Shown here: positions 44,425 to 62,256 of the stretch, one piece after another | Position numbering within the stretch: position 1 is the first letter of the stretch | Layout of the letters: each line of letters opens with the position of its first letter | Virus record (IMG/VR): IMGVR_UViG_3300043449_001732 | Coordinates: 19,982 to 83,981 of that record | Length of the DNA stretch: 64,000 nucleotides | Source: a virus | Direction: 5' to 3' (one strand) | Made by a program: the position numbers and the translations under genes | Notes under the pieces: generated by a model | Told to the model about the DNA's origin: nothing | The model's input: the letters and a program-made list of their open reading frames with translations, nothing else | Database searches by the model: none

Positions 44425-44444
44425 GAGTTGGTTGTATATGGGGT

Positions 44445-44471
44445 GGTCAGTTTTACGTCATGACCAGGACG
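44445..44471 (-). promoter_or_regulatory. 27-nt pseudoknot leader motif, copy 1
   Basis: CGTC-CTGGTCAT-GACG-TAAAAC-TGACC. Confidence 0.75.
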
Positions 44472-44476
44472 ATTGA

Positions 44477-44803
44477 TCACTCTGGTTTTGCCAGAAGCTC
44501 CTTAATAGATTTGATTTCATCCATCAAATCCTGACGAGTAAAAACTGTGATGCCGTCATAGGAACGTTCCGCAATTTTCTCAGGGTCTTCAGTCTTCTGG
44601 ATCACACGAGCATCATCGTTTGCATCATACGTAACACTCTCGTACATTCTCCAGATAACATCATGAGGCCAGCCATTAAGATCTACGTTCTGCTCTTGTG
44701 CTACACAGATAAGTGCACGCATTGTTTTAAAAAGAAACGTAGCTTTTTCTTCAAAGATCTCAAGGTAGCGATCTTCATCAAGTCCGTAGGTGTCAATTGA
44801 CAT
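44477..44803 (-). CDS. Hypothetical protein
   Basis: MSIDTYGL... ORF. Confidence 0.55.
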   Translation of the reverse strand: MSIDTYGLDEDRYLEIFEEKATFLFKTMRALICVAQEQNVDLNGWPHDVIWRMYESVTYDANDDARVIQKTEDPEKIAERSYDGITVFTRQDLMDEIKSIKELLAKPE

Positions 44804-44993
44804 AGCAATCAAGTGCGTTGGTTAATGCTTCGATGATAAAGGATTTTTGTCCTTCTTCACCAAGGCTTGTCCAGTATTCAAGCTCTGGATCTTCATCATC
44901 CCAATGAATGCGGATGGTGCAACCACCATCTTCTTCATCAATTACTTCAACCTCCAGCTTCTCAACCCATGTCATAGTTAGTTTTTTAGTCAC
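44793..44993 (-). CDS. Hypothetical acidic protein
   Basis: 66-aa ORF in coupled operon. Confidence 0.55.
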   Translation of the reverse strand: MTKKLTMTWVEKLEVEVIDEEDGGCTIRIHWDDEDPELEYWTSLGEEGQKSFIIEALTNALDCYVN

Positions 44994-45199
44994 AGGCCCT
45001 CCAGTTCGGCGGCAATGGCGAGGAGTTCATCTGCATCGCACTCCCACACGTCATGGCCATGGTGTTGCTGGGTGTGAGCAACTGCAGCACGGAGAGCGGC
45101 GGCGATCATTTCCGTTTCGGTGACATCACGGTCAAGGTTGTCGGCCAGTGTGAAGGCGGCATCCAGCACCGCCTGCGCGGCGGGGGAGAGGTCAGTCAT
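44990..45199 (-). CDS. Paralog family B (MTDLSPAAQAVLDA)
   Basis: Shares termini with 55292..55543. Confidence 0.7.
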   Translation of the reverse strand: MTDLSPAAQAVLDAAFTLADNLDRDVTETEMIAAALRAAVAHTQQHHGHDVWECDADELLAIAAELEGL

Positions 45200-45291
45200 T
45201 TTCTGTCAAGACAAACTAAAAACAGCAAAAGCCAAAGTGATGGTCCAATCTGTAGCGCAAAGGTGTATACTACCTCGCGCATATCAGTCAT
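45196..45291 (-). CDS. 31-aa membrane peptide
   Basis: MTDMREVVYTFALQIGPSLWLLLFLVCLDRK; coupled at both ends. Confidence 0.45.
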   Translation of the reverse strand: MTDMREVVYTFALQIGPSLWLLLFLVCLDRK

Positions 45292-45703
45292 CGGGCAGCT
45301 CCTCAATGGCGCGGCGGATTTGAGACAGGTCGCAGCCCATGCCGTGCATTGCCAGATCCGCGTTGAGCGTGTCCAGCTGCAGTAGCGCCTGCTCCTTCAA
45401 GCTCGGCGGCTTGGGGCGGCGGGCGGCGCGGAGTTGCAGCGTCAGATCGCCAACACCATCCAACCACTCACAACACGCCTCCAGCTCCTGGTCACTGGCC
45501 CATTGGGCGGCGCGGGTGGCGATGTGCTCATCGCTGAGTGAGACGCGGACGGGTGTGCCTTCATGCCAGATTTCGGCAACCCACTGCTGCACCAGCTCCG
45601 GCGGTGGGATAAGGTTATTGTCAGTCATTGGGTTACTGTGTGCGGTGAATCGTTCGTAATCGGCTAGTATCCTCGCCAGTCGTTGCGCTCGATAATCAGC
45701 CAT
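45284..45703 (-). CDS. Paralog family A (PPPELVQQW...DQELEAC...RRPKPPSLKEQAL); start 45703 or 45628
   Basis: Conserved family blocks. Confidence 0.7.
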   Translation of the reverse strand: MADYRAQRLARILADYERFTAHSNPMTDNNLIPPPELVQQWVAEIWHEGTPVRVSLSDEHIATRAAQWASDQELEACCEWLDGVGDLTLQLRAARRPKPPSLKEQALLQLDTLNADLAMHGMGCDLSQIRRAIEELPDD

Positions 45704-46049
45704 CGGGAAGCGCCTCCAGTGCTTTACGAATAAACTCAAGTTCACGCATTTGGTCCGAGAAAAACTCACCGCTCTTCTCAAATCGTTTCACACTTTCCAA
45801 GGCCAGCTCCTTCAAACTCAGTGGCCTCGGGCGGCGATAGTTATAGAACTCAGTCACATCTTCTTCTTCCCATGCAGCGCACTGTTTAAGGTAGTTGCCA
45901 CAAGCCAAAAGCTCCTGGTCGGCGCCCCATTGGGCGGCTACTTCCGCAATGTATTCATCAAACTCAAGAGACACGTACTGTCGATTTGCTGCTTCTACTC
46001 GCCACTGCTGCACCAGCTCCGGCGGTGGGGTGATGTGGTAGTTAGTCAT
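45696..46049 (-). CDS. Paralog family A
   Basis: Conserved family blocks. Confidence 0.75.
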   Translation of the reverse strand: MTNYHITPPPELVQQWRVEAANRQYVSLEFDEYIAEVAAQWGADQELLACGNYLKQCAAWEEEDVTEFYNYRRPRPLSLKELALESVKRFEKSGEFFSDQMRELEFIRKALEALPDG

Positions 46050-46993
46050 TTCTTTTTGATTGCAGATTGGAGTTGTGGTAGTGCAGTACCAGGGAATGGA
46101 ACGTAGCCAGCTTCCATCATACTGAAGAACAGATCCCAGGCATGACCCTGGTTGAATACCTCATTAGGTTTGTACGTACGCCAGTGGGTCAGTGGAGCCT
46201 GAGCGCCAGACTTGGTATGCAGCAGGACAAACTTACCCTCGCTGATGTGGTCAACAGGAGGTGCATACCACCAGGCAACACACTTATCAGGCGTACCACT
46301 GGGCAGTGCATTACGTACTTCAGTGCGTTTGCACAGAAGCTCACGGTACTTATGGAACCAAGTCAGGTGGATGCACCAGGGTTTGAATCCTTCAACCTCC
46401 TGTTGGAATAACGAAACATTAAGAAGCTGACGCTGAAAGGACCCACATGAGCAGTAAGGTTCAGGAGTGCCGGCCTGAATACCTGAGGTGTTTTCCTCCA
46501 GCTCAGACTCCAAGTCAATTGGCCGATTCGGGCTCCGAAGCCCATCCGGCGCAACCAAATGTCCCAGATCTGTCTGCTCATTCTGAAGGAGAGCGACGAC
46601 TTTGGCGGGGTCTGATAGGTGTATAAATTTGTCGGCCCAGTGCTGTTGAAGTTTTGCATTGGATGTCAGGTGTCCAAGTGCATGAGTATAGTTCCAACCT
46701 TTGAACATGACATAAGCATTGTTATGCCACACACTTGGCCCCCTGTAGTTGGGGCCAAGATAAGCAAAGAAATCTTTAAGGCGATGCGTGTACTGCTGGA
46801 AGGAACCCTTGATCAGCTGCCGGTCATAAGCCTGCTCACTACCATCGCGACGCACCACAATACAATGATCACCTCGCAGATAAATACCAGCGATTTCGGT
46901 GTCATCAAAGTCCTGGTACGCACGCCTGATGTTGGTGCGTGTGTAGATCGCAGCCTGCGCCGCGTTGAGTTCCTGCTGAGTTTGGTTGGACAT
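46046..46993 (-). CDS. SWIM Zn-finger-containing protein
   Basis: YCSCGSF...WCIHL. Confidence 0.65.
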   Translation of the reverse strand: MSNQTQQELNAAQAAIYTRTNIRRAYQDFDDTEIAGIYLRGDHCIVVRRDGSEQAYDRQLIKGSFQQYTHRLKDFFAYLGPNYRGPSVWHNNAYVMFKGWNYTHALGHLTSNAKLQQHWADKFIHLSDPAKVVALLQNEQTDLGHLVAPDGLRSPNRPIDLESELEENTSGIQAGTPEPYCSCGSFQRQLLNVSLFQQEVEGFKPWCIHLTWFHKYRELLCKRTEVRNALPSGTPDKCVAWWYAPPVDHISEGKFVLLHTKSGAQAPLTHWRTYKPNEVFNQGHAWDLFFSMMEAGYVPFPGTALPQLQSAIKKK

Positions 46994-47017
46994 GAGTTGA
47001 GTTTGAGTTGAGTTTGA

Positions 47018-47215
47018 TCAGACGTGCCAGGAGCTGTCGTCTTCCCGGATGGTAGCACGGTCCTTGGCATCCTGGTACGCTGCCCGCGATACACGGTACG
47101 TTCCGTAAGCAAGCGCAGCCCATGCCACAGGAGTGCCCACAAGAGCAAGGGCACCCGCACCAAGTAGGCCAAAGGAACCTCCGACTTTTAGAACAGCTTT
47201 GTGCTCAGGCTTCAT
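47018..47215 (-). CDS. Small membrane protein
   Basis: Gly/Ala hydrophobic segment. Confidence 0.55.
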   Translation of the reverse strand: MKPEHKAVLKVGGSFGLLGAGALALVGTPVAWAALAYGTYRVSRAAYQDAKDRATIREDDSSWHV

Positions 47216-47296
47216 GGTGGTAATCCTTAATACAATCGATTGGTTTCAAATCAGTTTAAATGCAACAAGTAGAATGAACTTAAACAATTTAATCTC

Positions 47297-47524
47297 ATGT
47301 TGAAATTCGAATCATCTGCAGAGGATTTGTTTTGGCAAGAGAAGATGTTCAGAACAATAAATGAATGTACATCACTTAGTGAGTTAAAAGAAATTGCCGT
47401 GCTGTTAACAAAGATTGCAACAACACGGCAGATAGCTATCAAAGGTTTAGTTAATGATGCCCTTGATCTAATGCAGGAGAATTACTCAAGCAAGATCAAG
47501 GACACCACTGATTCCATCAGCTAA
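47297..47524 (+). CDS. Second NblA-like helical-hairpin protein
   Basis: SAEDLFWQEKMFRTINEC.SLSELKEIAVLL..IA..RQ; lone + strand gene with TAGAAT upstream. Confidence 0.45.
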   Translation: MLKFESSAEDLFWQEKMFRTINECTSLSELKEIAVLLTKIATTRQIAIKGLVNDALDLMQENYSSKIKDTTDSIS

Positions 47525-48536
47525 GGCTGCTGTCCTCACCAGTGATTTCATCACGAGCAGGCAGTGCCTTCACCTCTACCGTATCCATGGTACGAGACAC
47601 AGGAAGAATCTCGACACCATCCTTGATGCCATAGGCACCACCAAGTTTCTGTGCATCCTGCTTGGCATGGATGTTGATGTAATCATTGAACAGCTCTTGG
47701 TACTTCCAAGTAGATTCACGATCTTCATCAGGAATCGACAGGCGATTCAATGATTCGACTGCTTCTTCTTGGGTGCTGTAACCAGGAATGTCAAAAGATT
47801 CAATTGCACAGATCTCAACGTTGTTGGCTCCGCGCATCTCGTTGGCAAGTACCGGAGTAAATACGGTAGTTGCATAGAACTTTTCATTGAAGCTCAGAGG
47901 TACTTCAGCATCCAGTGCCTTACTCAGGCACTTGGACATTTCCTTTTCGTACATCTTGACTTTTTCGGAAACGTCTGTGCCATTCAATCCCTTCAGGGTC
48001 AGAACCATCGGGATCTTATGGGCACGCTTGTTGTCCTGGGTCAGGATGTAAACCAGGTACTTGGTGCGTACGCTGTACTTACGCTTGTAGAGATTGCCTT
48101 TGCTACCTTCCAGGTCAGCAGCAATCTTGTCAGCTTCCCACAGTTCCTTAACATCAGGGTTGTCAAAGGTACCAATCGTCTGCCTCATCCCCGTGGTTTC
48201 CTCAACCATGAGGGGAGAACGAAGAAGGATTTGAATTCGAGGCTCAACAAAATTGAGTCCTTCTTCCACTGAAGTGTTGGGAGCCATACCAAAAGTTTGC
48301 TTGTAGTTCCAGATAACTGAACCTTTAGCAAACTGATCTTCAGTGGCACTCCAGCCGCAAGTGTCCAGGTCTGAGTTCCGCACGAACCAACCTCGTGTCT
48401 TGGACTTGTTGAGGGGCTGGATAGTGACGAGGTTTTGGTACCCCGAAACAAATTCTTTGGATTGAAAAAGTTTGAAAGAATCGAGTCCACGTGTTGCAAG
48501 CGCAGAAGTTTTCTTAGTAGTCATGGAAGCGGTCAT
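47517..48536 (-). CDS. DUF5895-like protein in the replication/recombination module
   Basis: EGLNFVEPRIQILLRSPL...YLVYILTQDNKRAHKIPMVLTLKG; next to SSB. Confidence 0.55.
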   Translation of the reverse strand: MTASMTTKKTSALATRGLDSFKLFQSKEFVSGYQNLVTIQPLNKSKTRGWFVRNSDLDTCGWSATEDQFAKGSVIWNYKQTFGMAPNTSVEEGLNFVEPRIQILLRSPLMVEETTGMRQTIGTFDNPDVKELWEADKIAADLEGSKGNLYKRKYSVRTKYLVYILTQDNKRAHKIPMVLTLKGLNGTDVSEKVKMYEKEMSKCLSKALDAEVPLSFNEKFYATTVFTPVLANEMRGANNVEICAIESFDIPGYSTQEEAVESLNRLSIPDEDRESTWKYQELFNDYINIHAKQDAQKLGGAYGIKDGVEILPVSRTMDTVEVKALPARDEITGEDSSLS

Positions 48537-48558
48537 GGTTTGTTCAGGGTTTGGACGT

Positions 48559-48585
48559 GGACGCTTTTAACGCCATCCCGAGGCG
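48559..48585 (-). promoter_or_regulatory. 27-nt pseudoknot leader motif, copy 2
   Basis: CGCC-TCGGGAT-GGCG-TTAAAAGC-GTCC. Confidence 0.7.
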
Positions 48586-48590
48586 GTGAC

Positions 48591-48830
48591 CTATATTAGG
48601 TCCTTGCAAGCATCCTTGTCATAAAGCGCAGCTGCCTTTGACAAAGCTTCACGTTCATCCAGTGATTCCTGGAGCGCAGCGTAAACACTGTCTTCGTTGT
48701 ACCCGCAGCCCTTCATAAACATGATGAAGTGCTCAAGGATTTCATCAGTAGTAACACCAGCGCTTTGAAATACGACGGTGTACTCTTCTTCCTCAAGAGT
48801 GAACTTCATGCGTTGATCAGTCTTCGTCAT
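48591..48830 (-). CDS. Hypothetical protein
   Basis: ILEHFIMFMKGCGY motif; coupled to upstream gene. Confidence 0.55.
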   Translation of the reverse strand: MTKTDQRMKFTLEEEEYTVVFQSAGVTTDEILEHFIMFMKGCGYNEDSVYAALQESLDEREALSKAAALYDKDACKDLI

Positions 48831-49053
48831 TGGTGTCCTCAATGTGATGAGCTGTGTGCGCTTCGCGAGCAGAAGAAAAAATTTCAGCAATCAAATAAGA
48901 AGCTTTTGCCATTTCTGTAATTGCTTCAAAAATTTCATCTCCTGTTGTTTCATTTCCATCAAATAATTTACCTACGTTTTCCATAAAGAACTCATAGGCA
49001 ATTGCATCTTTCAAAGAGAAGTCTGTGTCAACGCCCGTAATTTGAATTGACAT
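48817..49053 (-). CDS. Hypothetical protein
   Basis: 78-aa ATG ORF. Confidence 0.55.
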   Translation of the reverse strand: MSIQITGVDTDFSLKDAIAYEFFMENVGKLFDGNETTGDEIFEAITEMAKASYLIAEIFSSAREAHTAHHIEDTNDED

Positions 49054-49058
49054 AACAA

Positions 49059-49868
49059 TCAGAAGGGAACTTCTTCAAGGTCAGGTGCAGAACCATACTG
49101 ACCGGGGAGATCAGGCAGTCCACCACCAGAGCTTTGTGTCCAGGGGTCAGAGCCTTCCTCAGCGGTACGGCCACCCCACAGACTAGTGACATTCTCACCA
49201 GAAGCAACAGTTGTCTGCGGTGTAATCGGCTTCACTTCCCCTTGGCCCTTAGGTGCCAGGGTCATCGACACCAATTGGATCTTGGTATTAGAACGCTTCT
49301 CACCTGTGTTGGCATCCTTCCACGCATCAGTAATCAAACGACCCTGGATCGTAAGACCAGTTCCTTTACGTGTGAAGTTAACCAGTAGTTCTGCATTGTT
49401 CAACTTATCTTCTGCCGAGTTCATGGCAAAGAAGTTAAACAGATCTGCCTGATTCCTTCCCGTGTTAACAGAAAGAGTTTGGTTACAGATCATCAAGCCA
49501 TCGGCAGTTGTCTTGAAGGCTCGTGCATCTTCTTGATCAATGTCTTTGACGCAGCGACCGCTGAGGATAACTGTGTTGAAGATCGGGAACTGATCGTTAG
49601 CCGGAGCAATAATTCCTCCATGTAACGAAAACGTTCTGGACTCAAGGTCGAAACGTAGCTTGGCGCCGTGAATGTAGACCTGTGCACCCTTGGGTACTCG
49701 GGAAAAACGCTCGGCATTCTTACCGTACACATTAAGTTCAATTGGCGTTGGAGCTTTCTTGCCTACAGGAGGCAGCATTACCATGCAACGCATGGCTGTA
49801 GAACTTGCGCTGATGAATACCTCACGCGGTACTTCAGTGGTCTGAGCGCAAACAGAAACAAAGTTCAT
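49059..49868 (-). CDS. ssb: Single-stranded DNA-binding protein with tandem OB folds
   Basis: MNFV...YGKNAE...KGAQVYIHG and NTVILSGR...KGTGLTIQGRL..DAWKD; acidic tail EEVPF. Confidence 0.82.
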   Translation of the reverse strand: MNFVSVCAQTTEVPREVFISASSTAMRCMVMLPPVGKKAPTPIELNVYGKNAERFSRVPKGAQVYIHGAKLRFDLESRTFSLHGGIIAPANDQFPIFNTVILSGRCVKDIDQEDARAFKTTADGLMICNQTLSVNTGRNQADLFNFFAMNSAEDKLNNAELLVNFTRKGTGLTIQGRLITDAWKDANTGEKRSNTKIQLVSMTLAPKGQGEVKPITPQTTVASGENVTSLWGGRTAEEGSDPWTQSSGGGLPDLPGQYGSAPDLEEVPF

Positions 49869-49890
49869 GTGTTCGAGAAGTTAGTTGTTA

Positions 49891-49917
49891 AGGCAGTTTA
49901 ACGTCTTACCTGGGACG
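49891..49917 (-). promoter_or_regulatory. 27-nt pseudoknot leader motif, copy 3 (ssb leader)
   Basis: CGTC-CCAGGTAA-GACG-TTAAAC-TGCCT. Confidence 0.75.
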
Positions 49918-49922
49918 AGCAG

Positions 49923-50096
49923 TCATTCTTTTAGGGTAGGCAAAGGATCACCAAGGCTTTCTAGCCAACACAACATGCACCAGTGTCCGGCGTGTTCTGG
50001 AATAGTGCTTTGTATATATTGAGTATGCGTGCCATGCCTGGGGCAAATCACTTTTAATTCAGGCAGCTTGTCAATAAAAAATTCACTGGAGTCCAT
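49923..50096 (-). CDS. 57-aa putative Zn-binding protein
   Basis: CPRHG...HWCMLC, translated by hand. Confidence 0.5.
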   Translation of the reverse strand: MDSSEFFIDKLPELKVICPRHGTHTQYIQSTIPEHAGHWCMLCWLESLGDPLPTLKE

Positions 50097-50098
50097 GG

Positions 50099-51949
50099 TC
50101 AGTGGGTATCCGCCCAGGTGCAGCCCACCTTAGCATCACCTTGAATTGGACAGCGGAACCCAAAGAATTGTTGCGCTTGCGGGAACGCAGCCAATGCTTG
50201 TTCCTTGATTAGCTCAGTGTGCCGCGGATCACATGCAACTTGAATCTCATCGTGGACAAACAAGAGTTGTTCCCAATCCTTGCCGTGCACCAAGCCAAGG
50301 TTCTGTTCAATGTTGTTGTGCGTGGTGACAACAACTTGTTTCATGATTGCTGCACCACTTGCTTGCAACAAAACATTCAAGCCTTTAAAAGCGGAACGAC
50401 AATGTAACGTCCGACGATCAAGGCCGATAAGATAACCGCGTAAGCCAATGGTTTCATCAATAAGTTGTTTGAGTTTTCGGAGTGCAGGCACCCCGTCCAT
50501 GAATGAGTTAATTGCAGTAGCTCCTAGTTTCCTAAGAACTACTTCATCTTTTTCATTCGGATCAATAATTGTACCAGCCTTGAATGCACCAGCACCATAC
50601 AAAACCCCATATAGTAAACGCTTAGCAATATCCCTGGTCTCTACACCAAACATCTTTTGGTTGTACACGTGAATGTCAACCTCAGGGTTTGTAACCATTG
50701 CTGAGTATTCACCATCATCCCAGATAGCTAGATACCCGGCAAGACACCTAAGCTCCAAAGCTTTAGCATCGATCCCAATAAGATCCCAACCATCAGGAGC
50801 ATGGAACAACGAACGACATTCATGACCGTAAGGTGAATAACCTGCTGGCACTTGCGCCATGTTGGGATTGCGATGACTCGCGCGGCCCGTAATACATCCA
50901 TTGGTAATGAGATCACCGTGCATGCGGCCATCATCATTATTGACAAGCTTTAACCAAGCATTGTTGCCATCAGCAATCTGACCAAGACGTTTCTTGATCA
51001 GCATATATTCAGCCAATGGTTTGGCTTCCGGGTACGGCAAGGCATCGAGTACATCATCATCAAGAACTGGATTACCCTTCTCAGTATTCTTCTCTGGTAC
51101 CCAACCGTACTTTTGTTGTAGACGTTCAACAATTTGCGTACGAGATCCAGGATTAAATTCCTGATACGTGACTTTAGTAAACGGCTGGCCCTTGACATAA
51201 CCACGTTTCGAATTGTTTACCTTTGGAACAAAGATTGATTCAATCTTGTTAGGTGGAAAGATCTCCTTTAGGTGTGCCTCAAGTTCTGCTTCTTTTGCTC
51301 TGAGACTATCCACCAAATCAAGACATGCATCCACATCAAAAGGAATGCCTGCTCTAATTTGTTTTTCAATTGCCAAGGCAAGATCATGCTCAAGCTTGAG
51401 CGCAGGCTGCGGGTAGTTTTCTTTTGTGATGTGCTGCCAAAGCTTCTTAGTAACAGCAACGTCCTGCTGACAGTATGCCAACATTTCTTCACTGTATTCA
51501 CTGAAGTCTTTGAAGTCGATCTTGTGATCGGCCAACCTCCATCCCCATGCCTTGAGAGATGCAGAACCCTTGAGTCCCTTTGGAACCTGCGTATATTGTT
51601 CATCGTCAATTGTGTAGAGGATTTCTTTGGGCCAGATGAGTCTGGTGCAGATGAGTGTGTCAATGATTCTTCCGTTGAGTTGTACAGATGGATACAGTTT
51701 GTTTAGGACTGGAATGTCATAAAACAAAATGTTGTGGCCAATCAAAACATCAGCGGTTGCCAGATGAGCAAGAGCAGCAGCAATGCGATCAGGCCCATAA
51801 CTAAAAGTTTGTTGGAGTCCAATGTCATATACAACAATGCAATGGATTACCGTCACATTATCGTAGAGACCATCGGACTCCAGGTCAAACACAAGAAAAA
51901 CTTCACCTTCTTGTGGGTACATTGAAAATTTTGAATTACGTACATTCAT
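50099..51949 (-). CDS. polA: Family A DNA polymerase, T7-like with 3'-5' exonuclease, Tyr762 type
   Basis: FDLESDG, GHNILFYD, GIDAKALELR, RDIAKRLLYGVLYG, FVHDE. Confidence 0.95.
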   Translation of the reverse strand: MNVRNSKFSMYPQEGEVFLVFDLESDGLYDNVTVIHCIVVYDIGLQQTFSYGPDRIAAALAHLATADVLIGHNILFYDIPVLNKLYPSVQLNGRIIDTLICTRLIWPKEILYTIDDEQYTQVPKGLKGSASLKAWGWRLADHKIDFKDFSEYSEEMLAYCQQDVAVTKKLWQHITKENYPQPALKLEHDLALAIEKQIRAGIPFDVDACLDLVDSLRAKEAELEAHLKEIFPPNKIESIFVPKVNNSKRGYVKGQPFTKVTYQEFNPGSRTQIVERLQQKYGWVPEKNTEKGNPVLDDDVLDALPYPEAKPLAEYMLIKKRLGQIADGNNAWLKLVNNDDGRMHGDLITNGCITGRASHRNPNMAQVPAGYSPYGHECRSLFHAPDGWDLIGIDAKALELRCLAGYLAIWDDGEYSAMVTNPEVDIHVYNQKMFGVETRDIAKRLLYGVLYGAGAFKAGTIIDPNEKDEVVLRKLGATAINSFMDGVPALRKLKQLIDETIGLRGYLIGLDRRTLHCRSAFKGLNVLLQASGAAIMKQVVVTTHNNIEQNLGLVHGKDWEQLLFVHDEIQVACDPRHTELIKEQALAAFPQAQQFFGFRCPIQGDAKVGCTWADTH

Positions 51950-52657: not shown

Positions 52658-52692
52658 CGATCAATCAAGAAGACTGACAGATGTTACCTCAT

Positions 52693-53550: not shown

Positions 53551-53592
53551 ATTGAATCTTACCAGATCCCCTGCGGTGCAAGGGTTTTGGTG

Positions 53593-55800: not shown

Positions 55801-55827
55801 TGATCTCCTGGTGTAGATGAATTGGAA

Positions 55828-56512: not shown

Positions 56513-56687
56513 TAAGCAATCCTCCGTCAACAAGAATATCGCACCATTCTTTGAATGGCGCTTCAATTTGAGCCATAGTTTTGTTGTCAACAGTTTCTGG
56601 TTTACGAATCATGGCAATAGCTAGACCAAGAGCATTGCCAAGGCGGTTCTCAAGGTTGTTAAGTGGCACAAACTTGTAGTCAGTCAT
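56505..56687 (-). CDS. Hypothetical protein (MTDYK start)
   Basis: Coupled at both ends. Confidence 0.6.
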   Translation of the reverse strand: MTDYKFVPLNNLENRLGNALGLAIAMIRKPETVDNKTMAQIEAPFKEWCDILVDGGLLND

Positions 56688-57178
56688 TACTCAATCTCCT
56701 GTTCAAAAGCAAAAACAAGTGCTGGCGGAAAGTAAACATCGGGATTGCTGGTCATCCACGATGCCACCTCGCGGATTGCGGCGCGGGCCATGGAACCTTG
56801 TTCCTTGATGCTTTCCATTAGAGCGCCTTCGACCCGTTCTACCAGCGAACTCCCAATTTGGGAGGAATTAAGAGATGGCTTGGAGCTAGGTCGTAGCAAT
56901 GCGTTCAACTCCTCCTGTTGTTTTGCTGTGAGTTTTAGCGGTTTACTGATTTCGTAAACCTTTGAGGCTTGGCGTTCAGCAGCTTCCAATGACTCGACTC
57001 GGCTTGCCAAAGCCAAAATGTTGGCGCTGGTTTCAACGATGTGTTTGTGAGCAGCATTCTCTAGTGTTTCAATCCTGGCGCGGAGTTCAAGAATTGCAGA
57101 GCAATCAGAGCTGCCAACTACATCGGCGCATTTCTGAACTTGATTCCATTGATCAGACGTTGCTTTGTAATCAGTCAT
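56687..57178 (-). CDS. Hypothetical coiled-coil protein (MTDYK start)
   Basis: ILELRARIETLE / ILALASRVESLE internal repeat. Confidence 0.65.
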   Translation of the reverse strand: MTDYKATSDQWNQVQKCADVVGSSDCSAILELRARIETLENAAHKHIVETSANILALASRVESLEAAERQASKVYEISKPLKLTAKQQEELNALLRPSSKPSLNSSQIGSSLVERVEGALMESIKEQGSMARAAIREVASWMTSNPDVYFPPALVFAFEQEIE

Positions 57179-57515
57179 TGAGAGCCTCCAGGGCGCGGCG
57201 GATAATTTTTACTTGGTCCACGTCAAACACAATAAGTTCTTTAGCGTCTTCAGGTTCTTCTTCAAGAACTGCCAGCGCCTGCTCCTTCAAGCTCGGCGGC
57301 TTGGGGCGGCGGTAATTATAAAACTCAATTACATCTTCTTCTTCCCACGCAGCGCACTGCTTGAGGTAATTTCCACAAGCTAGTAACTCTTGGTCGGCAC
57401 CGTATCGGGCGGCTTCAATCAACAGTTCATTGATTCCTTTGTTGTAATCATCATGCTGCTCAAACCAAAGCTGCAATAGCTCTGACGGTGGAGTAATGGG
57501 ATGTTGGTCAGTCAT
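57171..57515 (-). CDS. Paralog family A
   Basis: Conserved family blocks. Confidence 0.75.
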   Translation of the reverse strand: MTDQHPITPPSELLQLWFEQHDDYNKGINELLIEAARYGADQELLACGNYLKQCAAWEEEDVIEFYNYRRPKPPSLKEQALAVLEEEPEDAKELIVFDVDQVKIIRRALEALND

Positions 57516-57858
57516 CGAGTTGCTCCAGTGCGCGGCGGATGATGTCAACTTCGTTGGATGTCAAGGAAGCACCAGGACCAGTGTCGCCATCCTCCAGTGC
57601 CTCCAGCGCCTGCTCCTTCAAGCTCGGCGGCTTGGGTAATGGGCGGCGGGCGGCGCGGATGTAGCGAGCAAAGTCATAAGCATCCTCACCTGCGTCAATC
57701 TCAACCAGCCTTAGGCACGCCTCCAGCTCCTGGTCGGCGCCCCATTGGGCGGCTTGGGTGGCAATGTGGCACTCGTAAGCATTGTTGATGGCAGCGTCTG
57801 CGGGGCCGCTCTCTCGCCACTGCTGCACCAGCTCTGGCGGTGGGGTGATATCAGTCAT
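57508..57858 (-). CDS. Paralog family A
   Basis: Conserved family blocks. Confidence 0.75.
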   Translation of the reverse strand: MTDITPPPELVQQWRESGPADAAINNAYECHIATQAAQWGADQELEACLRLVEIDAGEDAYDFARYIRAARRPLPKPPSLKEQALEALEDGDTGPGASLTSNEVDIIRRALEQLDD

Positions 57859-58207
57859 TGGGCAGAGCCTCCAGGGCGCGGCGAATAATGTCGATTTGAT
57901 CCATGTCAAACACGATGAGTTCTTTAGCATCTTCTGGCTCCGTTTCAAGAGCTGCTAACGCCTGCTCTTTCAAAGTCGGCGGCTTGGAGCGGCGGGCAGC
58001 GCGGAGTTTGTCAGTCTTAATATTGTCCCAGCCTTGTATCAGCCACTCACAACACGCCTCTAGCTCCTGGTCGGCGCCATATTGGGCGGCCATCAAGACG
58101 ACGTGTTCCTCTGCCTCTGAGCTTGTGTACTGCCGGTGGGCGGTTTCTTCCCGCCACTGCTGCACCAGCTCTGGCGGTGGGGTGATGGGATGATTAGTCA
58201 TTGTCAT
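57851..58207 (-). CDS. Paralog family A
   Basis: Conserved family blocks. Confidence 0.75.
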   Translation of the reverse strand: MTMTNHPITPPPELVQQWREETAHRQYTSSEAEEHVVLMAAQYGADQELEACCEWLIQGWDNIKTDKLRAARRSKPPTLKEQALAALETEPEDAKELIVFDMDQIDIIRRALEALPND

Positions 58208-58506
58208 TCTCCAAGTAATGCACAGGTTTGATCCATGAGTTGAGGGAATACTTCAACAGGACAGATGCGACATTGCGCATGTTCTGTTGGTGTCTTGAGG
58301 TGATCCCATTGAACACGCAACATCTTCATGGTGCGCTTACTCTTCAATTGCTTGGTAACCACCTCAACCACAGTGCCGTATCGCTGGTTGCGGTACTGAG
58401 CAATACGATCCTTAACCTCTTGCCTGATTGCAATCAAGCCATGGGTCTTGGGTCGTTCGGCAACACGGTCGCCAACTTGATAGGTGAATTGAGCTTTGGT
58501 TGTCAT
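58204..58506 (-). CDS. Hypothetical protein, SH3-like pattern
   Basis: YQVGDRV...YGTVVEV...LRVQWD. Confidence 0.55.
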   Translation of the reverse strand: MTTKAQFTYQVGDRVAERPKTHGLIAIRQEVKDRIAQYRNQRYGTVVEVVTKQLKSKRTMKMLRVQWDHLKTPTEHAQCRICPVEVFPQLMDQTCALLGE

Positions 58507-58844
58507 CAGATGTGAGTCCAAACTTTGCGGTTGACGATACGTGAGACATGCCCACGGTTGATGCCGTAGATAACAGAGATTGCAAAATTAGTTTTGCCCT
58601 CCTGTTTCAATTTACGAATGTCCAAGATGTTCTGCTCGGTCAACACAGAGAATCCATTCCTGGATCCTTGTGTATCCGCAAGCTTACCGCCTTTCTTGGG
58701 ACCACGGCGGTAATGTTCATAACGCTCAATGGTACGAAACTTAAAACCGCAGTCAAGACAGCGGCAGTAACGTTTGCTAAATGTTTCGCTGTGATCAGTG
58801 CAAGTAACACGTGTGTTCTTGCTGTTGCATGATTCACATTTCAT
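58506..58844 (-). CDS. NrdR-like Zn ribbon fused to an HTH
   Basis: MKCESC...TRV...RYCRCLDCGFKFRTIER + LTEQNILDIR...YGINRGHVSRIV. Confidence 0.7.
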   Translation of the reverse strand: MKCESCNSKNTRVTCTDHSETFSKRYCRCLDCGFKFRTIERYEHYRRGPKKGGKLADTQGSRNGFSVLTEQNILDIRKLKQEGKTNFAISVIYGINRGHVSRIVNRKVWTHI

Positions 58845-59182
58845 TGTGGATCAATAGAACAAGGTGCATTGTCTTGTGGTTCAGCAACCTTATCTAATTG
58901 CAATGCATCAAGAATATACAGAGTGGTTTCATCACCCAGTATCTTGAATGCATCGATAATCAAATCACGGTTGCGTTCAGTTGGGTTGTAGTAATCCAAT
59001 AGGATTTCTTCTGCTCGATCAAAGTTGTCATAGTCACCAGTGAGTTGTTCAACCACTGCACCAGGCATCGCATCCACTAGGTTTGCTACCAGTGAGTCAC
59101 GCACTGCAGCCCATGTCCAACTTGGGACACGGGAGACTACTTCATCAACGAGATCAAGATTAATGAGATTAGGTTGTGTCAT
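58841..59182 (-). CDS. Hypothetical protein
   Basis: MTQPNLI... ORF. Confidence 0.55.
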   Translation of the reverse strand: MTQPNLINLDLVDEVVSRVPSWTWAAVRDSLVANLVDAMPGAVVEQLTGDYDNFDRAEEILLDYYNPTERNRDLIIDAFKILGDETTLYILDALQLDKVAEPQDNAPCSIDPQ

Positions 59183-59230
59183 AGAGAAAGACCCCGACTT
59201 GCGCCGGGGTCCGAACATTCCGCATGAATA

Positions 59231-59593
59231 CTAGACGGGTTCAGCGCTGGTGTCTAGTGCATCACCCATTACACCAGAGGATCTTAATTTTTCCAGCATG
59301 TCGCACATGATAGTGGCATGAGCATGGGTCTGATCCATGAAGTGCTTGGCACGTTCTGCGCTGATGGTGTGGATGTTCCCATTGGGCTCCACATATTTCC
59401 AGCTCCCATCAGGCTGAGGATCCCCCTGGAGAGCCAGCCGCTCTGAGTTGTGTACGTAGCGAAGCTCTAGGTTATGGAAGTCTTGCAGGCCATCCTGAGC
59501 GGTCCAGGTAGCACCAATGTTGTAACGCTTGTCATGATCTGAGTACGCATGGAACTCAGGAACGATGTGCTTGAAACAGGCAAAAATGTTCAT
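59231..59593 (-). CDS. Hypothetical protein
   Basis: ATG directly after tRNA; followed by hairpin ~59190-59212. Confidence 0.6.
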   Translation of the reverse strand: MNIFACFKHIVPEFHAYSDHDKRYNIGATWTAQDGLQDFHNLELRYVHNSERLALQGDPQPDGSWKYVEPNGNIHTISAERAKHFMDQTHAHATIMCDMLEKLRSSGVMGDALDTSAEPV

Positions 59594-59616
59594 TGTGTTT
59601 GAGTTGAATGAAAGGT

Positions 59617-59692
59617 TGGTACCCGAGGTGAGATTCGAACTCACGCTGTAGCGATTTTAAGTCGCTTGCCTCTTCCGCTGGGCTACTCGGGC
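59617..59692 (-). tRNA. trnL: tRNA-Leu(UAA), short variable loop, encoded CCA
   Basis: GCCCGAG TA GCCCAGCGGAAGAGGC A AGCGA CTTAAAA TCGCT ACAGC GTGAG TTCGAAT CTCAC CTCGGGT A CCA. Confidence 0.92.
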
Positions 59693-59901
59693 TCACTTGG
59701 ACTTACATCAATTGATGTTGACTGCCAAGTGTGGTCTCGTGGTAATACCTCTAAACCGTATTGCCAACTGTCGTAGTCATCTTCATTACGAGGATCCTGC
59801 TCATCAATCAATACATAATCAGGTGTGCCATGAGTATGTATGTACTCACCAATGTTGGCAAGTGCTTGTGCCAGGAGTTGGTCGTCGGTGTACTCAGTCA
59901 T
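59683..59901 (-). CDS. Hypothetical acidic protein
   Basis: 72 aa; stop lies inside tRNA 5' end. Confidence 0.55.
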   Translation of the reverse strand: MTEYTDDQLLAQALANIGEYIHTHGTPDYVLIDEQDPRNEDDYDSWQYGLEVLPRDHTWQSTSIDVSPSEPE

Positions 59902-59952
59902 AGGTGAATGCCAGCCCTAGTATCGAGGCTAAGGCCGGCAAGCCTGTGCGGG

Positions 59953-61695
59953 CTAGACAGACTCTAGCGCATCTGCTTGAAGTTTCAACGCTTTGCCAAA
60001 GGCTTCTGTGTAGGAATCCTTTTGCTCTTGCGTCAACCGCTGGTTGGATGTACCAACGATCTGGCTAACACTCATCATGCCCATCTCAACTTTGAGTTGG
60101 ACAGTGAACTGAGGTTTGCCGTCAACCATACAGAGCACAATGAAATGTTTCTTCTTGCGTACACCAGTGGCATACTCACTGGCATTGCCGACGCAATTAC
60201 GTACGGCCTGGCCCCATGCTGACAGTTGATGTGTGTCATGAGGCTGGAAGAATGACCAACGTTCATCACCCACTTCAACCTTTATAGGTGAGGGGAATAG
60301 ATCCTGAGGCAGGCTAGCGTTTGGATGCTTGATCTTCCATGCTTCTGCTTGCACATGATCATGGAACTCAGTCAGGCGCCAACGCTTTGGCGGATCAATG
60401 GTCATGTCATTGTTAAGCACATCATCAAGCATTGATAGTGTGTCATTCCATTCAGTTAAATAGAATGTAAGCTTGCCTGTCTCAGTGCTTGTGTAGTAAG
60501 ACAAGCTATTGGGTTTGTCATTGATCTGATCTTCGTAGTTTTTCTTGAGGATATGAAAGAAGGAAGCTGGTTGCATATGTGTGCGCAACCAGGTCTTTGC
60601 CTTTTCACCTACGCAACGATCAAGGCGTGTGCCAATTAGATATTCAATATGGTTCTGATAGAAATCAACAGGGCAGTCCGGCCAAATATTATTAACGTAA
60701 TCAATAGCCTGCACTAGTTTTTCAATACGATTCCAAGGTTGAGTTATCTTACGGAATAGATTATTCTCAGGATTATTAAACATTGCAATAGCTTCATCAC
60801 ATTGCGATTGAATCCACTTGCGGAAGAATGGTGTACCAACTATATGTAATACGCGATCAATAATGCAATATACCTGGCTGTGATAATCATTATGATTCTT
60901 CTTATATACATCAGCTAATGCATAAAACAAATCTGCAGATGGAACCAAGTCACGTTTAGCTTGCTCTGGATCAGCAAAAGTATTCCAATACTTACTGCGA
61001 TCTTTTAATCCAAGAATCGCAGCCCAGTTATTGGTAACAATGCGATCAAAGAATCCACGTGCGTCATCCCATTTAGGAATGGTTTGACCAAGTGCAGATT
61101 CAAATGCTGATATAGCTGTCCTGATGTTACAGCCTTTGCCATATGATACGTAACAAGGGCACCACCAATGGGTTGTATTGCCGTTAGCAATATCTTCCTT
61201 GGTTAAGTTCTGACGTACAACGCAGAACTCACTGCGTCCGTACTTAACATATTCAACTGAAACTTTACTGTTGTTTTGAAGCAAGGTACTTGGAAGAGAC
61301 TTGCGTACCGATTCAAGATTCTTGTATGCATATGCGTAGCCATATACATAATCATTCTCTTGTCCTTTGGGTGGCAGCCATGCTGCATACCACACCTTCT
61401 CGTAGTGATAAATGATGGCACGAGTAATGGTGCGTGCTCTTGGCGTAGCAACATCTACCACCTTGGTAAACTGAGCATGGCGATGTTCTACACCCCTGGC
61501 ATTGAGATCAGTTACTACTTCCTCAAGCTTTGTAGGTGTAACAACATCAGCAGGTATCAGATCAAAGACTGCGCCAAGTGGAAACTTAGCTTTAGCCTTG
61601 GTTGACGTAGGATTCTGCTCACGTTGTAGCTGCTTGAGCTTGGGATCGTAAGCCAGGAGTTCTGTTTGAAGGTTCGAAGGTAATTGAAACTGCAT
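59953..61695 (-). CDS. PcfJ-like domain protein
   Basis: C-terminal HD...P....LSAWGQAVRNCVG..Y...IVGTSNQ. Confidence 0.75.
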   Translation of the reverse strand: MQFQLPSNLQTELLAYDPKLKQLQREQNPTSTKAKAKFPLGAVFDLIPADVVTPTKLEEVVTDLNARGVEHRHAQFTKVVDVATPRARTITRAIIYHYEKVWYAAWLPPKGQENDYVYGYAYAYKNLESVRKSLPSTLLQNNSKVSVEYVKYGRSEFCVVRQNLTKEDIANGNTTHWWCPCYVSYGKGCNIRTAISAFESALGQTIPKWDDARGFFDRIVTNNWAAILGLKDRSKYWNTFADPEQAKRDLVPSADLFYALADVYKKNHNDYHSQVYCIIDRVLHIVGTPFFRKWIQSQCDEAIAMFNNPENNLFRKITQPWNRIEKLVQAIDYVNNIWPDCPVDFYQNHIEYLIGTRLDRCVGEKAKTWLRTHMQPASFFHILKKNYEDQINDKPNSLSYYTSTETGKLTFYLTEWNDTLSMLDDVLNNDMTIDPPKRWRLTEFHDHVQAEAWKIKHPNASLPQDLFPSPIKVEVGDERWSFFQPHDTHQLSAWGQAVRNCVGNASEYATGVRKKKHFIVLCMVDGKPQFTVQLKVEMGMMSVSQIVGTSNQRLTQEQKDSYTEAFGKALKLQADALESV

Positions 61696-61724
61696 GGTGA
61701 GTTCGGAGTAGGTTCGGAGTAAGT

Positions 61725-61751
61725 GGACAGTTTAGCGTCATGTCCAGGACG
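61725..61751 (-). promoter_or_regulatory. 27-nt pseudoknot leader motif, copy 5
   Basis: CGTC-CTGGACAT-GACG-CTAAAC-TGTCC. Confidence 0.75.
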
Positions 61752-61758
61752 TATGGTG

Positions 61759-62007
61759 TCAGTCGTTATCTACTGGGAGTAGTTCCCAGTCAGGGTTGAG
61801 CAGAGCAAGATAATCGCAGAAGCCATCTTCGTCAAGAGGGATTTGTTCTCCCTCATCCAGTTCGAAGCTTGTTCTGCATAGTGCAGGAGCGTACTCATCA
61901 GGGTCGAGGTAAGTCGACTTACGAATGAGACGCATTTCGTCAACCACTGCTGTAACTGTAACATCGTTGCCGTCAATGAATGTTTCTTCGATTGCTAGGA
62001 CTTGCAT
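61759..62007 (-). CDS. Hypothetical acidic protein
   Basis: 82-aa ATG ORF. Confidence 0.6.
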   Translation of the reverse strand: MQVLAIEETFIDGNDVTVTAVVDEMRLIRKSTYLDPDEYAPALCRTSFELDEGEQIPLDEDGFCDYLALLNPDWELLPVDND

Positions 62008-62010
62008 GGG

Positions 62011-62208
62011 TTATACCTGTGTGAGTTGCTTGGCTTGGGCAAACTGACCTTGAGGTCCATACTTCTGGACAAGGTCAGGGAATGCATCAAGCAAACGCTG
62101 CCGATTCTTTGGATCAGCAAAGCGTAGTGCTTGTGCAATTGAGGATACGAATGATCCGCCATAGCTGTCCATGCGGGCAATCATGGCGTGGAGTTCGGTT
62201 GAGTTCAT
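62011..62208 (-). CDS. Small phage early protein
   Basis: M..YGGSFVSSIAQA...AD..NRQRLLDAFP motif. Confidence 0.65.
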   Translation of the reverse strand: MNSTELHAMIARMDSYGGSFVSSIAQALRFADPKNRQRLLDAFPDLVQKYGPQGQFAQAKQLTQV

Positions 62209-62229
62209 GAGATGAGGTTGAGTTGGACT

Positions 62230-62256
62230 GGATGAGTTTAAGGACATCCCAGGTCC
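62230..62256 (-). promoter_or_regulatory. 27-nt pseudoknot leader motif, copy 6
   Basis: GGAC-CTGGGAT-GTCC-TTAAACTC-ATCC. Confidence 0.7.

Follow-up and report, generated by a model that had tools for sequence, protein, structure and literature searches.

The described systems closest to the element reported here are the exoribonuclease-resistant RNAs (xrRNAs) of the coremin type. Coremin is reported to halt both Xrn1 and scanning ribosomes; in reticulocyte lysate it also stimulates -1 frameshifting, and an E. coli reporter screen yielded light-positive clones. A pseudoknot has been proposed for it in which the loop contacts the spacer and adenosines dock on S1. It remains active with loops of 6, 7 or 8 nt, Xrn1 resistance is abolished when the G at loop position 2 is moved or removed, and at spacer position A20 a change to U kills the activity and a change to C is tolerated. 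A Watson-Crick variant, xrRNA-WCC, is known (Dilweg et al. 2023, PMC10321173); its L1 base is essential (PMC10321173), and it frameshifts without the hairpin hp2 (30.4%). For Xrn1 resistance, hp2, which lies just downstream, is strictly required in both coremin and xrRNA-WCC, and ordinary frameshift pseudoknots show no Xrn1 resistance. The flaviviral xrRNA also stops a bacterial enzyme, RNase J1. Bacteria or phages are mentioned nowhere in the text of the coremin paper (0 occurrences).

The preQ1-I aptamer is an H-type pseudoknot of minimal size whose 3' linker is rich in A, and the T4 gene 32 translational operator consists of a pseudoknot and an unstructured leader, bound by gp32. The pseudoknot described here (the knot) differs from preQ1-I in having neither a queuosine gene context nor a sequestered start site. 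With the T4 operator it shares a small H-type fold, an unstructured leader and an ssb start codon, but that operator serves one gene, whereas the knot heads seven different genes and occurs in unrelated genomes. The luteoviral frameshift pseudoknots of BWYV and PLRV likewise have a short S1 and an L1 of 1–2 nt, with an A-rich loop across the S1 minor groove, as may be the case in the knot (PMC10321173). Frameshift stimulators stand 5–9 nt from the A-site codon, a spacing also seen here, but the luteoviral pseudoknots follow a slippery heptamer, whereas the knot follows a stop codon and lies outside coding sequence. Nor does the knot have the upstream sequence of a -1 programmed frameshift stimulator: of 70 distinct contexts, just 4 contain a slippery XXXYYYZ heptamer at a distance of 5–9 nt, and a stop codon is found 5 nt upstream instead.

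Seven copies of a covarying pseudoknot in a lake cyanophage

The window, which is the whole 64,000-nt stretch of lake cyanophage DNA that was analysed, contains six minus-strand elements of 27–28 nt, and these lie where the preliminary description had placed them (44445, 48559, 49891, 53524, 61725 and 62230). A further, seventh copy is present in the genome outside the window (G000:C1:754-781). The elements form a covarying H-type RNA pseudoknot with an S1 of 4 bp, a one-nucleotide L1 (C), an S2 of 4–6 bp and a YUAAAC linker. Copies belong either to class A, with an 8-nt loop, or to class B, with a 7-nt loop and a longer linker, and the search model, R1, was built from class A copies only.

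Copy 1 (44444–44471, minus strand; class A; 42.1 bits, E = 3.8e-07) reads CGUC / C / UGGUCA / U / GACG / UAAAAC / UGACCA. The stop codon of the upstream ORF (44477–44479) lies 5 nt before S1, and a 19-nt leader leads to the ATG, at 44424, of a 39-aa ORF (44305–44424, minus strand). The gene after this ORF (43588–44301) is Gp157-like, with a match to Sipho_Gp157 (25.4 bits) that falls under the Pfam cut-off of 28.6; this and the other assignments of downstream genes (the 39-aa ORF, DUF5895, SSB, GP88, PcfJ and a 65-aa ORF) stand. Copy 2 (48559–48585, minus strand; class B), with the layout CGCC / UCGGGAU / GGCG / UUAAAAGC / GUCC, has U instead of C as L1 and was missed by R1; its stop codon is 5 nt upstream, and a 22-nt leader separates it from the ATG of the DUF5895 gene (47517–48536). 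Copy 3 (49890–49917, minus strand; class A; 41.4 bits) reads CGUC / CC / AGGUA / A / GACG / UUAAAC / UGCCU, again with a stop codon 5 nt upstream, and its 21-nt leader ends at the ATG of ssb (49059–49868).

Copy 4 (53524–53550, minus strand; class B; 18.6 bits, E = 0.2), GGUC / CUGGAAU / GACC / CUAAAC..UCCA, is imperfect, as had been noted from the start: S2 is UGGA/UCCA, and the pairing is imperfect beyond it. The closest long upstream ORF ends 42 nt before this copy, and a 42-nt leader precedes the ATG of the GP88 gene at 53481. Copy 5 (61724–61751, minus strand; class A; 42.7 bits), CGUC / C / UGGACA / U / GACG / CUAAAC / UGUCCA, has its stop codon 7 nt upstream and a 28-nt leader to the ATG of the PcfJ-like gene (59953–61695). 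For copy 6 (62230–62256, minus strand; class B), GGAC / CUGGGAU / GUCC / UUAAAC..AUCCA, the stop codon is 5 nt upstream, and the leader of 21 nt ends at the ATG (62208) of the 65-aa ORF (62011–62208). The stem pairings first reported are borne out: three copies share CGTC/GACG as stem 1, the remaining ones have CGCC/GGCG, GGTC/GACC and GGAC/GTCC, and the list continues with GGTCA/TGACC, GGACA/TGTCC, AGGTA/TGCCT and GGAT/GTCC for stem 2; only the GGAT/ATCC register of copy 6 is not unique, UGGG/UCCA being equally good.

The two G-C pairs of S1, G2-C15 and C4-G13, are invariant and the U-A pair nearly so (U3-A14 in 41 of 42 distinct copies), while the outer pair covaries and is never unpaired, even where selection ignored pairing. 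When S1 pairs 1 and 3 were both left free, they were standard in 41 of 41 distinct sequences (outer pair: CG 24, GC 8, UA 5, AU 2, UG 2; third pair: UA 38, AU 3). S2 consists of Watson-Crick or wobble pairs that are free to vary in sequence, and five of its six pairs are changed on both sides among 42 distinct 28-nt copies. In these copies 92.6% of the cells are paired, compared with 81.3 ± 0.9 in shuffles and 16–49% in slid controls; stem 2 contains 21 G-U pairs versus 9 A-C mismatches in 252 cells. The bases of the loop and linker are highly conserved in the aligned copies.

The orientation of the knot is equally uniform, and together these features go far beyond what chance would give. A model search of S-EIV1 and 20 related viral contigs (448,178 bases, both strands) gave 84 matches at E ≤ 0.05, every one on the gene-sense strand. 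A pattern without stem 2 finds 86 sense versus 1 antisense sites in the genome and 21 related loci, and 86 versus 0 when S1 pairs 1 and 3 are also left out. Because both stems covary, G-U pairs exceed A-C mismatches and the strong matches are all on the sense strand, the elements are RNA structures rather than a DNA operator, as had been argued originally.

Comparison with coremin

The core of the knot, (C)GUC-C...A-D-GAC(G)-UUAAACU, corresponds to the hp1 stem, the first loop base, the last two loop bases and the spacer of coremin. The 4-bp stem CGUC/GACG and the invariant pairs are common to both (Dilweg et al. 2019, PMC6546385; 2023, PMC10520033). The consensus for the coremin loop (YGAD or YGNNAD) has Y first, A in the penultimate position and D last, and the knot agrees with it at these positions: the aligned copies have an invariant C in column 5, an invariant A in column 11 and, in column 12, mostly U or A with a minority of C. 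At loop position 2, in contrast, coremin has G, and all 45 aligned knot copies have U or C. The coremin spacer is G-UUAAACUAC, with A16–A20 essential; the knot keeps UUAAACU (AAA invariant; C22 and U23 at least 90% conserved), but the base matching A20 is G in at least 90% of copies. As the conserved bases recur in phages, many bacterial phyla and coremin, they appear to be kept for the sake of the fold rather than for contact with a partner peculiar to one host.

The two RNAs differ further in S2, which is a non-canonical 3-nt contact in coremin and a clear Watson-Crick helix of 4–6 bp in the knot. The variant xrRNA-WCC resembles the knot in having a coremin-like hp1 stem and spacer, a canonical antiparallel S2 between loop and spacer and a single L1 base, but its S2 has 3 bp in a 4-nt loop and its L1 is G, whereas the knot has an S2 of up to 6 bp, an 8-nt loop and C as L1. 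The hairpin hp2 is absent in the cyanophage copies: folding of the 45 nt after the knot gives an average MFE of -2.1 kcal/mol, with 2% at or below -8. Judged by sequence, the cyanophage knot shares the core of coremin but is without the hp2 that coremin requires. Their settings are also different: coremin is found in the 3' UTR of beny-, cucumo- and other eukaryotic RNA viruses, and the knot is intergenic, just ahead of start codons, in dsDNA phages and bacteria, which are without Xrn1.

Occurrence and spacing of the knot

The knot is not private to the cyanophage, yet it is in no RNA catalogue searched. The Rfam comparison suggested in the preliminary description returned no family: none, including GP20-b (RF03003), overlaps any copy at the gathering score, or at E ≤ 10 (18.6 kb; 601 nt around two copies), and the covariance model of preQ1-I (RF00522) has no match even at E ≤ 10. 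Unrelated viral contigs, and genomes from many bacterial phyla, contain the same core with its S2 pairing intact; a pattern search of genome_contigs found 110 stretches versus ∼17 expected by chance (an arithmetic estimate). Among 85 bacterial-genome instances read, all four free S2 pairs form in 40 (15.8 in shuffles) and three of the four in 34 (34.8 in shuffles). Of the 80 viral loci read, 37 have no protein similarity to the cyanophage, and 33 of the 38 instances in these loci keep at least three of the four free pairs. Only one of 80 genome loci (L058) shares a protein with the cyanophage within the 8 kb fetched, and the genes on either side are a mixed set (64 ORFs, with 32 Pfam families of at most 3 members each). 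By crude ORF calls, 26 of 27 classifiable copies of the wider set have an upstream ORF that runs in their own direction, and convergent ORFs flank 5 of 27 classifiable copies outside cyanophages.

The spacing between the knot and the neighboring genes follows simple rules. The distance from the upstream stop codon is never below 5 nt (0 of 86) and is exactly 5 nt in 37 copies, 6 in 7 and 7 in 4; the 5-nt distance is seen in 28 of 69 distinct contexts, with no conserved sequence in the spacer. No long ORF ends within 12 nt for ∼40% of cyanophage copies. On the other side, 57 of 58 distinct class A copies have 17–34 nt between the end of the knot and the ATG, and all cyanophage copies keep their spacing to the ATG, also those without a nearby upstream ORF. 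The claim that the leaders are G-poor and have no Shine-Dalgarno (SD) site was upheld: G makes up 4.0% of the first 20 nt (58 distinct copies), and GGAG or GAGG occurs within 45 nt 3' of the knot in 1 of 58. GGAG/GAGG usage is about at chance throughout the cyanophage genome (21 of 127 genes), and CA-rich, G-poor leaders also precede cyanophage genes that have no knot. Outside cyanophages, leaders are not G-poor, an ordinary SD site follows the knot in 28 of 70 cases, and some leaders carry hairpins instead; a downstream hairpin of -8 or lower is present in 43% of these copies, one locus (L062) has a terminator-like hairpin directly after the knot, and some knots stand before distant genes. 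In the region 44000–63900, neither sigma-70-like promoters (28 versus 25.8 ± 5.6 in shuffles) nor terminators (16 versus 18.0 ± 4.9) are enriched, which suggests that the knots lie inside long transcripts.

A possible roadblock and its alternatives

The structure, strand, spacing rules, wide distribution and core identity with coremin are all observed features of the knot. The preliminary description had offered four readings (an SSB-sensing regulon, SD-independent ribosome recruitment, an exoribonuclease block and a small-ligand aptamer), and of these the exoribonuclease block is the best fit, because the core matches that of the coremin xrRNA. We infer, with some reserve, that the knot may well act as a mechanical roadblock in the 5'-to-3' direction, placed at the 5' boundary of cistrons; its targets and tertiary contacts may be as follows. 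A compact, self-folding pseudoknot would be transcribed within the long early and replication messages, and its A-rich YUAAAC linker could occupy the S1 minor groove. It would bind no phage-specific factor and would obstruct anything moving 5' to 3' on the RNA. Candidate targets in the cyanobacterial host are the exonuclease RNase J, RNase E when it scans from a 5'-monophosphate end, and any ribosome still on the message. An enzyme-independent block is argued from the ability of the flaviviral xrRNA to halt RNase J1. RNase J cannot be the universal target, since five motif-bearing genomes were checked for it and three, two from Betaproteobacteria and one from Bacteroidetes (MAGs that are possibly incomplete or mis-binned), show no convincing RNase J. 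The knot would mark and shield the 5' boundary of a cistron in the order knot, 17–34-nt unstructured CA-rich leader and ATG, a packing that may be as tight as two ribosomes allow: a gap of 5 nt or more behind the stop codon would spare a terminating ribosome from unwinding the knot, and with at least 17 nt between knot end and ATG, an initiating 30S subunit would be unobstructed.

More tentatively, the knot might be the prokaryotic counterpart of the xrRNAs of eukaryotic viruses, i.e., a universal, minimal and protein-independent mechanical block. If so, DNA phages and bacteria of many phyla would place such blocks at chosen points of polycistronic RNAs, against 5'-to-3' exoribonucleases, scanning RNase E and ribosomes alike, and a 6-bp S2 would replace both the S2 of coremin and its stacked hp2 hairpin. 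Bacteria and phages would then have their first natural exoribonuclease-resistant RNA, also the smallest known, and phages would share one RNA solution with plant and fungal RNA viruses. Several observations speak against a roadblock, namely the absence from the cyanophage copies of the hp2 that coremin and xrRNA-WCC need for Xrn1 resistance, the differences at two essential coremin positions (loop position 2 and A20), the tight spacing between knot and ATG, which is equally compatible with a role in translation initiation, and the convergent-ORF (5 of 27) and L062 copies, which have no downstream message to shield.

The knot could instead stop ribosomes and not nucleases, which we regard as unlikely. 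As a purely translational insulator at the entrance of the ribosome terminating upstream, it would prevent sliding, scanning or read-through into the next leader, and translation of each downstream cistron would begin de novo on the CA-rich leader, at a rate set for that cistron. The 5-nt wall behind stop codons (37 of 86 copies, with none nearer) and the co-oriented upstream ORFs (26 of 27) are consistent with this, as are the activities of coremin on ribosomes (a block to scanning, and frameshifting) and the frameshifting by the Watson-Crick variant without hp2, which the cyanophage copies also lack; however, the ∼40% of cyanophage copies with no long ORF end within 12 nt keep the same spacing to the ATG. 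It is improbable that the knot is a translational operator on which phage SSB or another RNA-binding protein nucleates before spreading over the unstructured leader, creating a regulon of early and replication genes. The resemblance to the T4 gene 32 operator, the copy at ssb itself and the conservation of loop and linker bases, expected of a protein site, favor such an operator, but the knot occurs in unrelated viral contigs and many bacterial phyla (1 of 80 genome loci sharing any protein) beside heterogeneous ORFs, leaders in other hosts are not G-poor and have SD sites or hairpins, and G-poor leaders in the cyanophage occur without the knot. Nor is the knot specific to the ssb message: seven different genes carry it, and 79 of 80 genome loci share no cyanophage protein (8 kb fetched). 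Pseudoknots have been selected as ligands of ribosomal protein S1, and a knot end 17–34 nt before the ATG coincides with the upstream edge of the 30S footprint; these points, and the lack of SD sites in the leaders, would suit a recruitment or standby element that loads 30S onto the leader, for example through S1. Such an element is quite improbable given that SD sites are at chance genome-wide, that genes without the knot have the same leaders, and that hosts which use SD sites have a normal one after the knot (28 of 70), or else hairpins, terminators or distant genes. Thus, both the SSB regulon and the SD substitute of the preliminary description are left unsupported by the wide distribution of the knot beside unrelated genes and by the chance-level SD usage.

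We consider a very small metabolite-sensing riboswitch aptamer, with a fold of the preQ1-I type, highly improbable. The knot is near the smallest known aptamers in size and is an H-type fold with an A-rich linker and conserved unpaired bases, but no Rfam riboswitch family matches at E ≤ 10 in the regions given above, the downstream genes are diverse and non-metabolic, there are seven copies per genome, and the start region is never paired, so that there is no expression platform. A signal at the DNA level, whether a promoter, an operator or a hairpin in single-stranded DNA that a polymerase or primase would use, is just as hard to maintain. The intergenic location, fixed orientation and faintly -10-box-like TAAAC(T) would fit it, but compensatory changes in two interleaved helices are meaningless for duplex DNA, the excess of sense-strand G-U pairs over A-C mismatches (21 versus 9) points to RNA, the 5-nt wall matches the geometry of ribosomes and not of DNA, and the 44000–63900 region is not enriched in promoter-like sequences.

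A structured RNA as a 5' boundary marker, which is what the proposed roadblock would be, is compatible with one further arrangement in the cyanophage. Here a tRNA gene (59620–59692, minus strand), which is not a copy of the knot, takes its place directly before a CA-rich leader of ∼27 nt that ends at an ATG at 59593.

Architecture and covariation of the knot

The six elements of the preliminary description, when read directly in the sequence, have one shared design at all six places on the minus strand (44445, 48559, 49891, 53524, 61725 and 62230; copies 1 to 6), and the names that it gave to the downstream genes are borne out by Pfam. Each consists, in order, of a 4-bp stem, a 7–8-nt loop, the 3′ stem arm, a (Y)UAAA(C) linker and a segment that pairs back to the loop. 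The result is an H-type pseudoknot (the knot) with a stem 1 (S1) of 4 bp, a single base (L1) between the stems, a stem 2 (S2) of up to 6 bp, one base (A or U) preceding the 3′ arm of S1, and an A-rich, 6-nt linker. The first loop base is C, or U in copy 2. Copies 1, 3 and 5 have an 8-nt loop (class A), while in the class B variant (copies 2, 4 and 6) the loop has 7 nt, S2 is 4 bp and the linker is longer. Scanned by structure, the window yields these six copies and nothing comparable on its plus strand. The source record is an 83,981-bp viral sequence with terminal repeats, of which the window is 19982–83981, and a seventh copy lies outside the window at 754–781 of the same contig, on the same strand as the six. 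The loops of copies 4 and 6 contain ATG triplets (53541 and 62247, minus strand), which lead to spuriously long minus-strand ORF calls at 52693–53541 (282 aa) and 62011–62247 (78 aa); the true starts are likely at 53481 for the copy 4 gene and 62208 for the copy 6 gene.

The closest named phage, Synechococcus phage S-EIV1 (∼77% DNA identity across polA-ssb), has seven syntenic knot copies, with S2 sequences unlike those of the window (AAGCA/UGCUU, UGAGU/ACUCA, UGAGUA/UGCUCA and GGCA/UGCC). Twenty further related viral contigs were fetched via the SSB protein. A first, crude sequence pattern was uninformative (18 matches versus 9.6 expected) and was replaced by structural scans. In 448,178 bases, a covariance model made from ten 28-nt copies, with S2 as the paired part, had 101 matches at E ≤ 10. 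The 84 with E ≤ 0.05 are all on the gene-sense strand; random orientation of homologs was one of the outcomes that the preliminary description had named as telling against it. The 17 weaker matches include three that are antisense to genes and one on the plus strand of the window, in an unrelated region.

Sites were also defined without S2, to avoid circularity, and these number 86 sense versus 1 antisense; when pairs 1 and 3 of S1 are freed as well, the counts are 86 and 0. In 41 of 41 distinct sequences the freed S1 pairs are standard, and the outer one occurs as five pair types. Pairing statistics are based on 42 distinct 28-mers, selected blind to S2. S2 is paired at 87.7%, with changes on both sides in five of its six pairs, and pairing over the whole structure is 92.6%, versus 81.3 ± 0.9% for shuffles and 16–49% for slid partners. 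Both stems thus change in a compensated fashion, and the claim of a covarying RNA structure holds. Because S2 has more G-U pairs (21) than A-C mismatches (9), the folding strand is the sense strand.

The preliminary description allowed for a known Rfam family; across the whole window, none overlaps any copy at the gathering score. Likewise, no family lies over the knots at E ≤ 10 (18.6 kb, and also 601 nt), or over the knot in 18 further loci at the gathering score. No published description of the motif in phages or bacteria was found in the literature covered, which excludes subscription journals. The only relevant match to its 10-letter core string is a paper on coremin, a plant-virus RNA; the papers found on exoribonuclease-resistant RNA, RNase J and bacteria concern only eukaryotic-virus xrRNAs or unrelated topics, and the searched text of one coremin paper mentions neither bacteria nor phages.

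Placement and occurrence

The knot begins less than 5 nt after the upstream stop codon in none of 86 copies, at 5 nt in 37, at 6 nt in seven and at 7 nt in four. With duplicate contexts removed, 28 of 69 are at 5 nt, and the sequence of this spacer is not conserved. A gap of 5 nt would be the shortest that spares the knot from being opened by the terminating ribosome. From the end of the knot to the ATG there are 17–34 nt in 57 of 58 distinct class A copies (median 22 nt; exactly 19 nt in twelve). The two spacings suggest that the knot is packed between stopping and starting ribosomes, and from these walls (5 nt after stops, about 17–19 nt before starts) ribosome footprints can be read cleanly within the genome. 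A scan for promoter-like and terminator-like sites gave no enrichment, and a frameshift signal was rejected, as only 4 of 70 contexts contain a slippery heptamer.

The leaders, i.e., the stretches from knot to ATG, are G-poor as originally described (4.0% G), and GGAG/GAGG occurs in 1 of 58 copies. Over the whole genome, GGAG or GAGG is present at −25 to −4 in 21 of 127 crude gene calls, which is about chance, and the phage seems to manage without Shine-Dalgarno sites altogether. G-poor, CA-rich leaders with AACTCAAC-like repeats are also found ahead of knot-less early genes, e.g., the 315-aa gene at 46046–46993 (leader 46994–47021, minus strand); leader and knot are separable modules. A tRNA gene (58.5 bits) at 59620–59692 on the minus strand leads straight into a CA-rich leader of ∼27 nt, with the ATG at 59593. 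The layout of this region (59593–59692) is the same as that of knot, leader and ATG, and a structured RNA that is excised by tRNA-processing enzymes here occupies the position elsewhere taken by the pseudoknot.

The knot is not private to S-EIV1-like phages. In bacterial and archaeal contigs (one genome per species), a 24-nt core pattern has 110 matching stretches versus ∼17 by chance, by our own arithmetic; among the taxa are Saccharibacteria, many Bacillota, Chloroflexota, Delta-, Alpha- and Betaproteobacteria, Bacteroidota and a Phytoplasma. Among the 85 genome instances read, all four free S2 pairs are kept in 40, three in 34 and two or fewer in 11; shuffles have 15.8 with all four and 34.8 with three. 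IMG/VR contains at least 114 stretches with the core pattern. Among the matches listed, 37 of the 80 IMG/VR loci read encode nothing similar to the proteins of this genome, and at least three free S2 pairs are kept in 33 of the 38 instances at those loci. Orientation in this wider set was analyzed with crude ORF calls of at least 90 aa, and is indicative only.

Resemblance to coremin and candidate functions

The knot closely resembles coremin (xrRNA-C), an exoribonuclease-resistant RNA of plant viruses. Coremin is a 4-bp hairpin with the stem CGUC/GACG and a YGAD or YG(N)nAD loop (6-, 7- and 8-nt loops are functional), followed by the spacer UUAAACUAC and then by another hairpin, termed hp2. 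It blocks the progress of Xrn1 and of scanning ribosomes and stimulates −1 frameshifting; neither coremin type resists Xrn1 without hp2, and ordinary frameshift knots are not resistant (PMC6546385, PMC10520033, PMC10321173). A canonical S2 is formed in the Watson-Crick variant, xrRNA-WCC (PMC10321173). The phage knot has the same stem, first loop base, last two loop bases and UUAAACU. However, loop position 2 is G in coremin and U or C in the phage knot (although coremin supplements may hold closer loop variants), the base matching coremin A20 is G, S2 is long and canonical, unlike that of coremin, and hp2 is absent from the cyanophage copies. Because it lacks defining features of coremin, the knot is, judged by its sequence, a new variant rather than a member.

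To our knowledge, exoribonuclease-resistant RNAs have so far been a feature of eukaryotic RNA viruses. The bases of the knot are conserved alike in eukaryotic RNA viruses and in phages whose hosts differ widely, which speaks for a role in the fold itself rather than in binding a partner specific to one host. Folds of this kind are direction-dependent mechanical blocks, cyanobacteria possess RNase J, and RNase E scans along RNA. The knot, with its short open leader and ATG and clear of the upstream ribosome, fits a 5′ boundary element that would stop 5′-to-3′ decay and stray ribosomes, with RNase J and RNase E scanning as the proposed targets. A flaviviral xrRNA stops not only Xrn1 but also bacterial RNase J1 (PMC5760640). 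We tentatively favor a roadblock, at somewhat less than an even chance. If it were to confer exoribonuclease resistance, the knot would give bacteria and phages compact, portable control over the stability and independence of single cistrons in long messages, and would account for an intergenic motif that is very common and uncatalogued; it would also be useful to structural biology, as a 28-nt model of a mechanically anisotropic fold, and to synthetic biology, as a natural insulator part.

Several observations weigh against the roadblock. Besides the missing hp2, some copies outside the cyanophages have no downstream message, and a convincing RNase J is missing from three of five motif-bearing genomes tested; these three are MAGs and may be incomplete. 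Of two Betaproteobacteria MAGs, one has no match and the other only a 19.9-bit match, and a Bacteroidetes MAG has matches of at most 63 bits, which weakens RNase J as the single target; the remaining two genomes have matches of 320 and 633 bits. The tight distance to the ATG is equally apt for a translational role, and an insulator that acts on ribosomes only, though unlikely, is the next most probable reading. Even in that case the motif, strongly covarying, widespread and absent from Rfam, would merit a family entry.

The other candidates fare less well. A protein operator is improbable, and the SSB-sensing regulon proposed in the preliminary description is not supported: the knot occurs in unrelated viral contigs and many phyla, only one of 80 bacterial loci (L058) has proteins in common with this phage, and the flanking ORFs of the wider set fall into 32 Pfam families, none in more than 3 of 64 members. 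SD-independent ribosome recruitment, also suggested there, is likewise not supported and appears slightly less probable still. Shine-Dalgarno use is near chance throughout the phage, the same leaders precede knot-less genes, and in the wider set 28 of 70 knots have GGAG/GAGG downstream and 43% a stable hairpin. A riboswitch is very improbable, and the same applies to a reading at the DNA level.

Unusual contexts in other genomes

Tandem knot pairs are present in Anaerolineales and Anaerolineae MAG contigs (L045, 1375–1430; L099, 2567–2625), and tandem knots also lie ahead of a 736-aa protein kinase gene in a 7,982-nt IMG/VR contig labelled GVMAG (L211, 4690–4796). At locus L062, the knot (6633–6656, minus strand) is at the 3′ end of a transcript, immediately followed by a terminator-like hairpin and U tract, with no gene after. 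In a 150-kb viral contig (L206, 5051–7659), 5 nt separate the knot from the stop of an upstream 859-aa ORF, which weakly matches RdRP (PF05183; 31.6 bits). Six Saccharibacteria MAGs (L026, L041, L053, L080, L084 and L088) have a recurrent, conserved cassette, in which the stop codon of a 113-aa ORF is followed by 7 nt, the knot and a hairpin (CAUGCUG...CAGCAUG).
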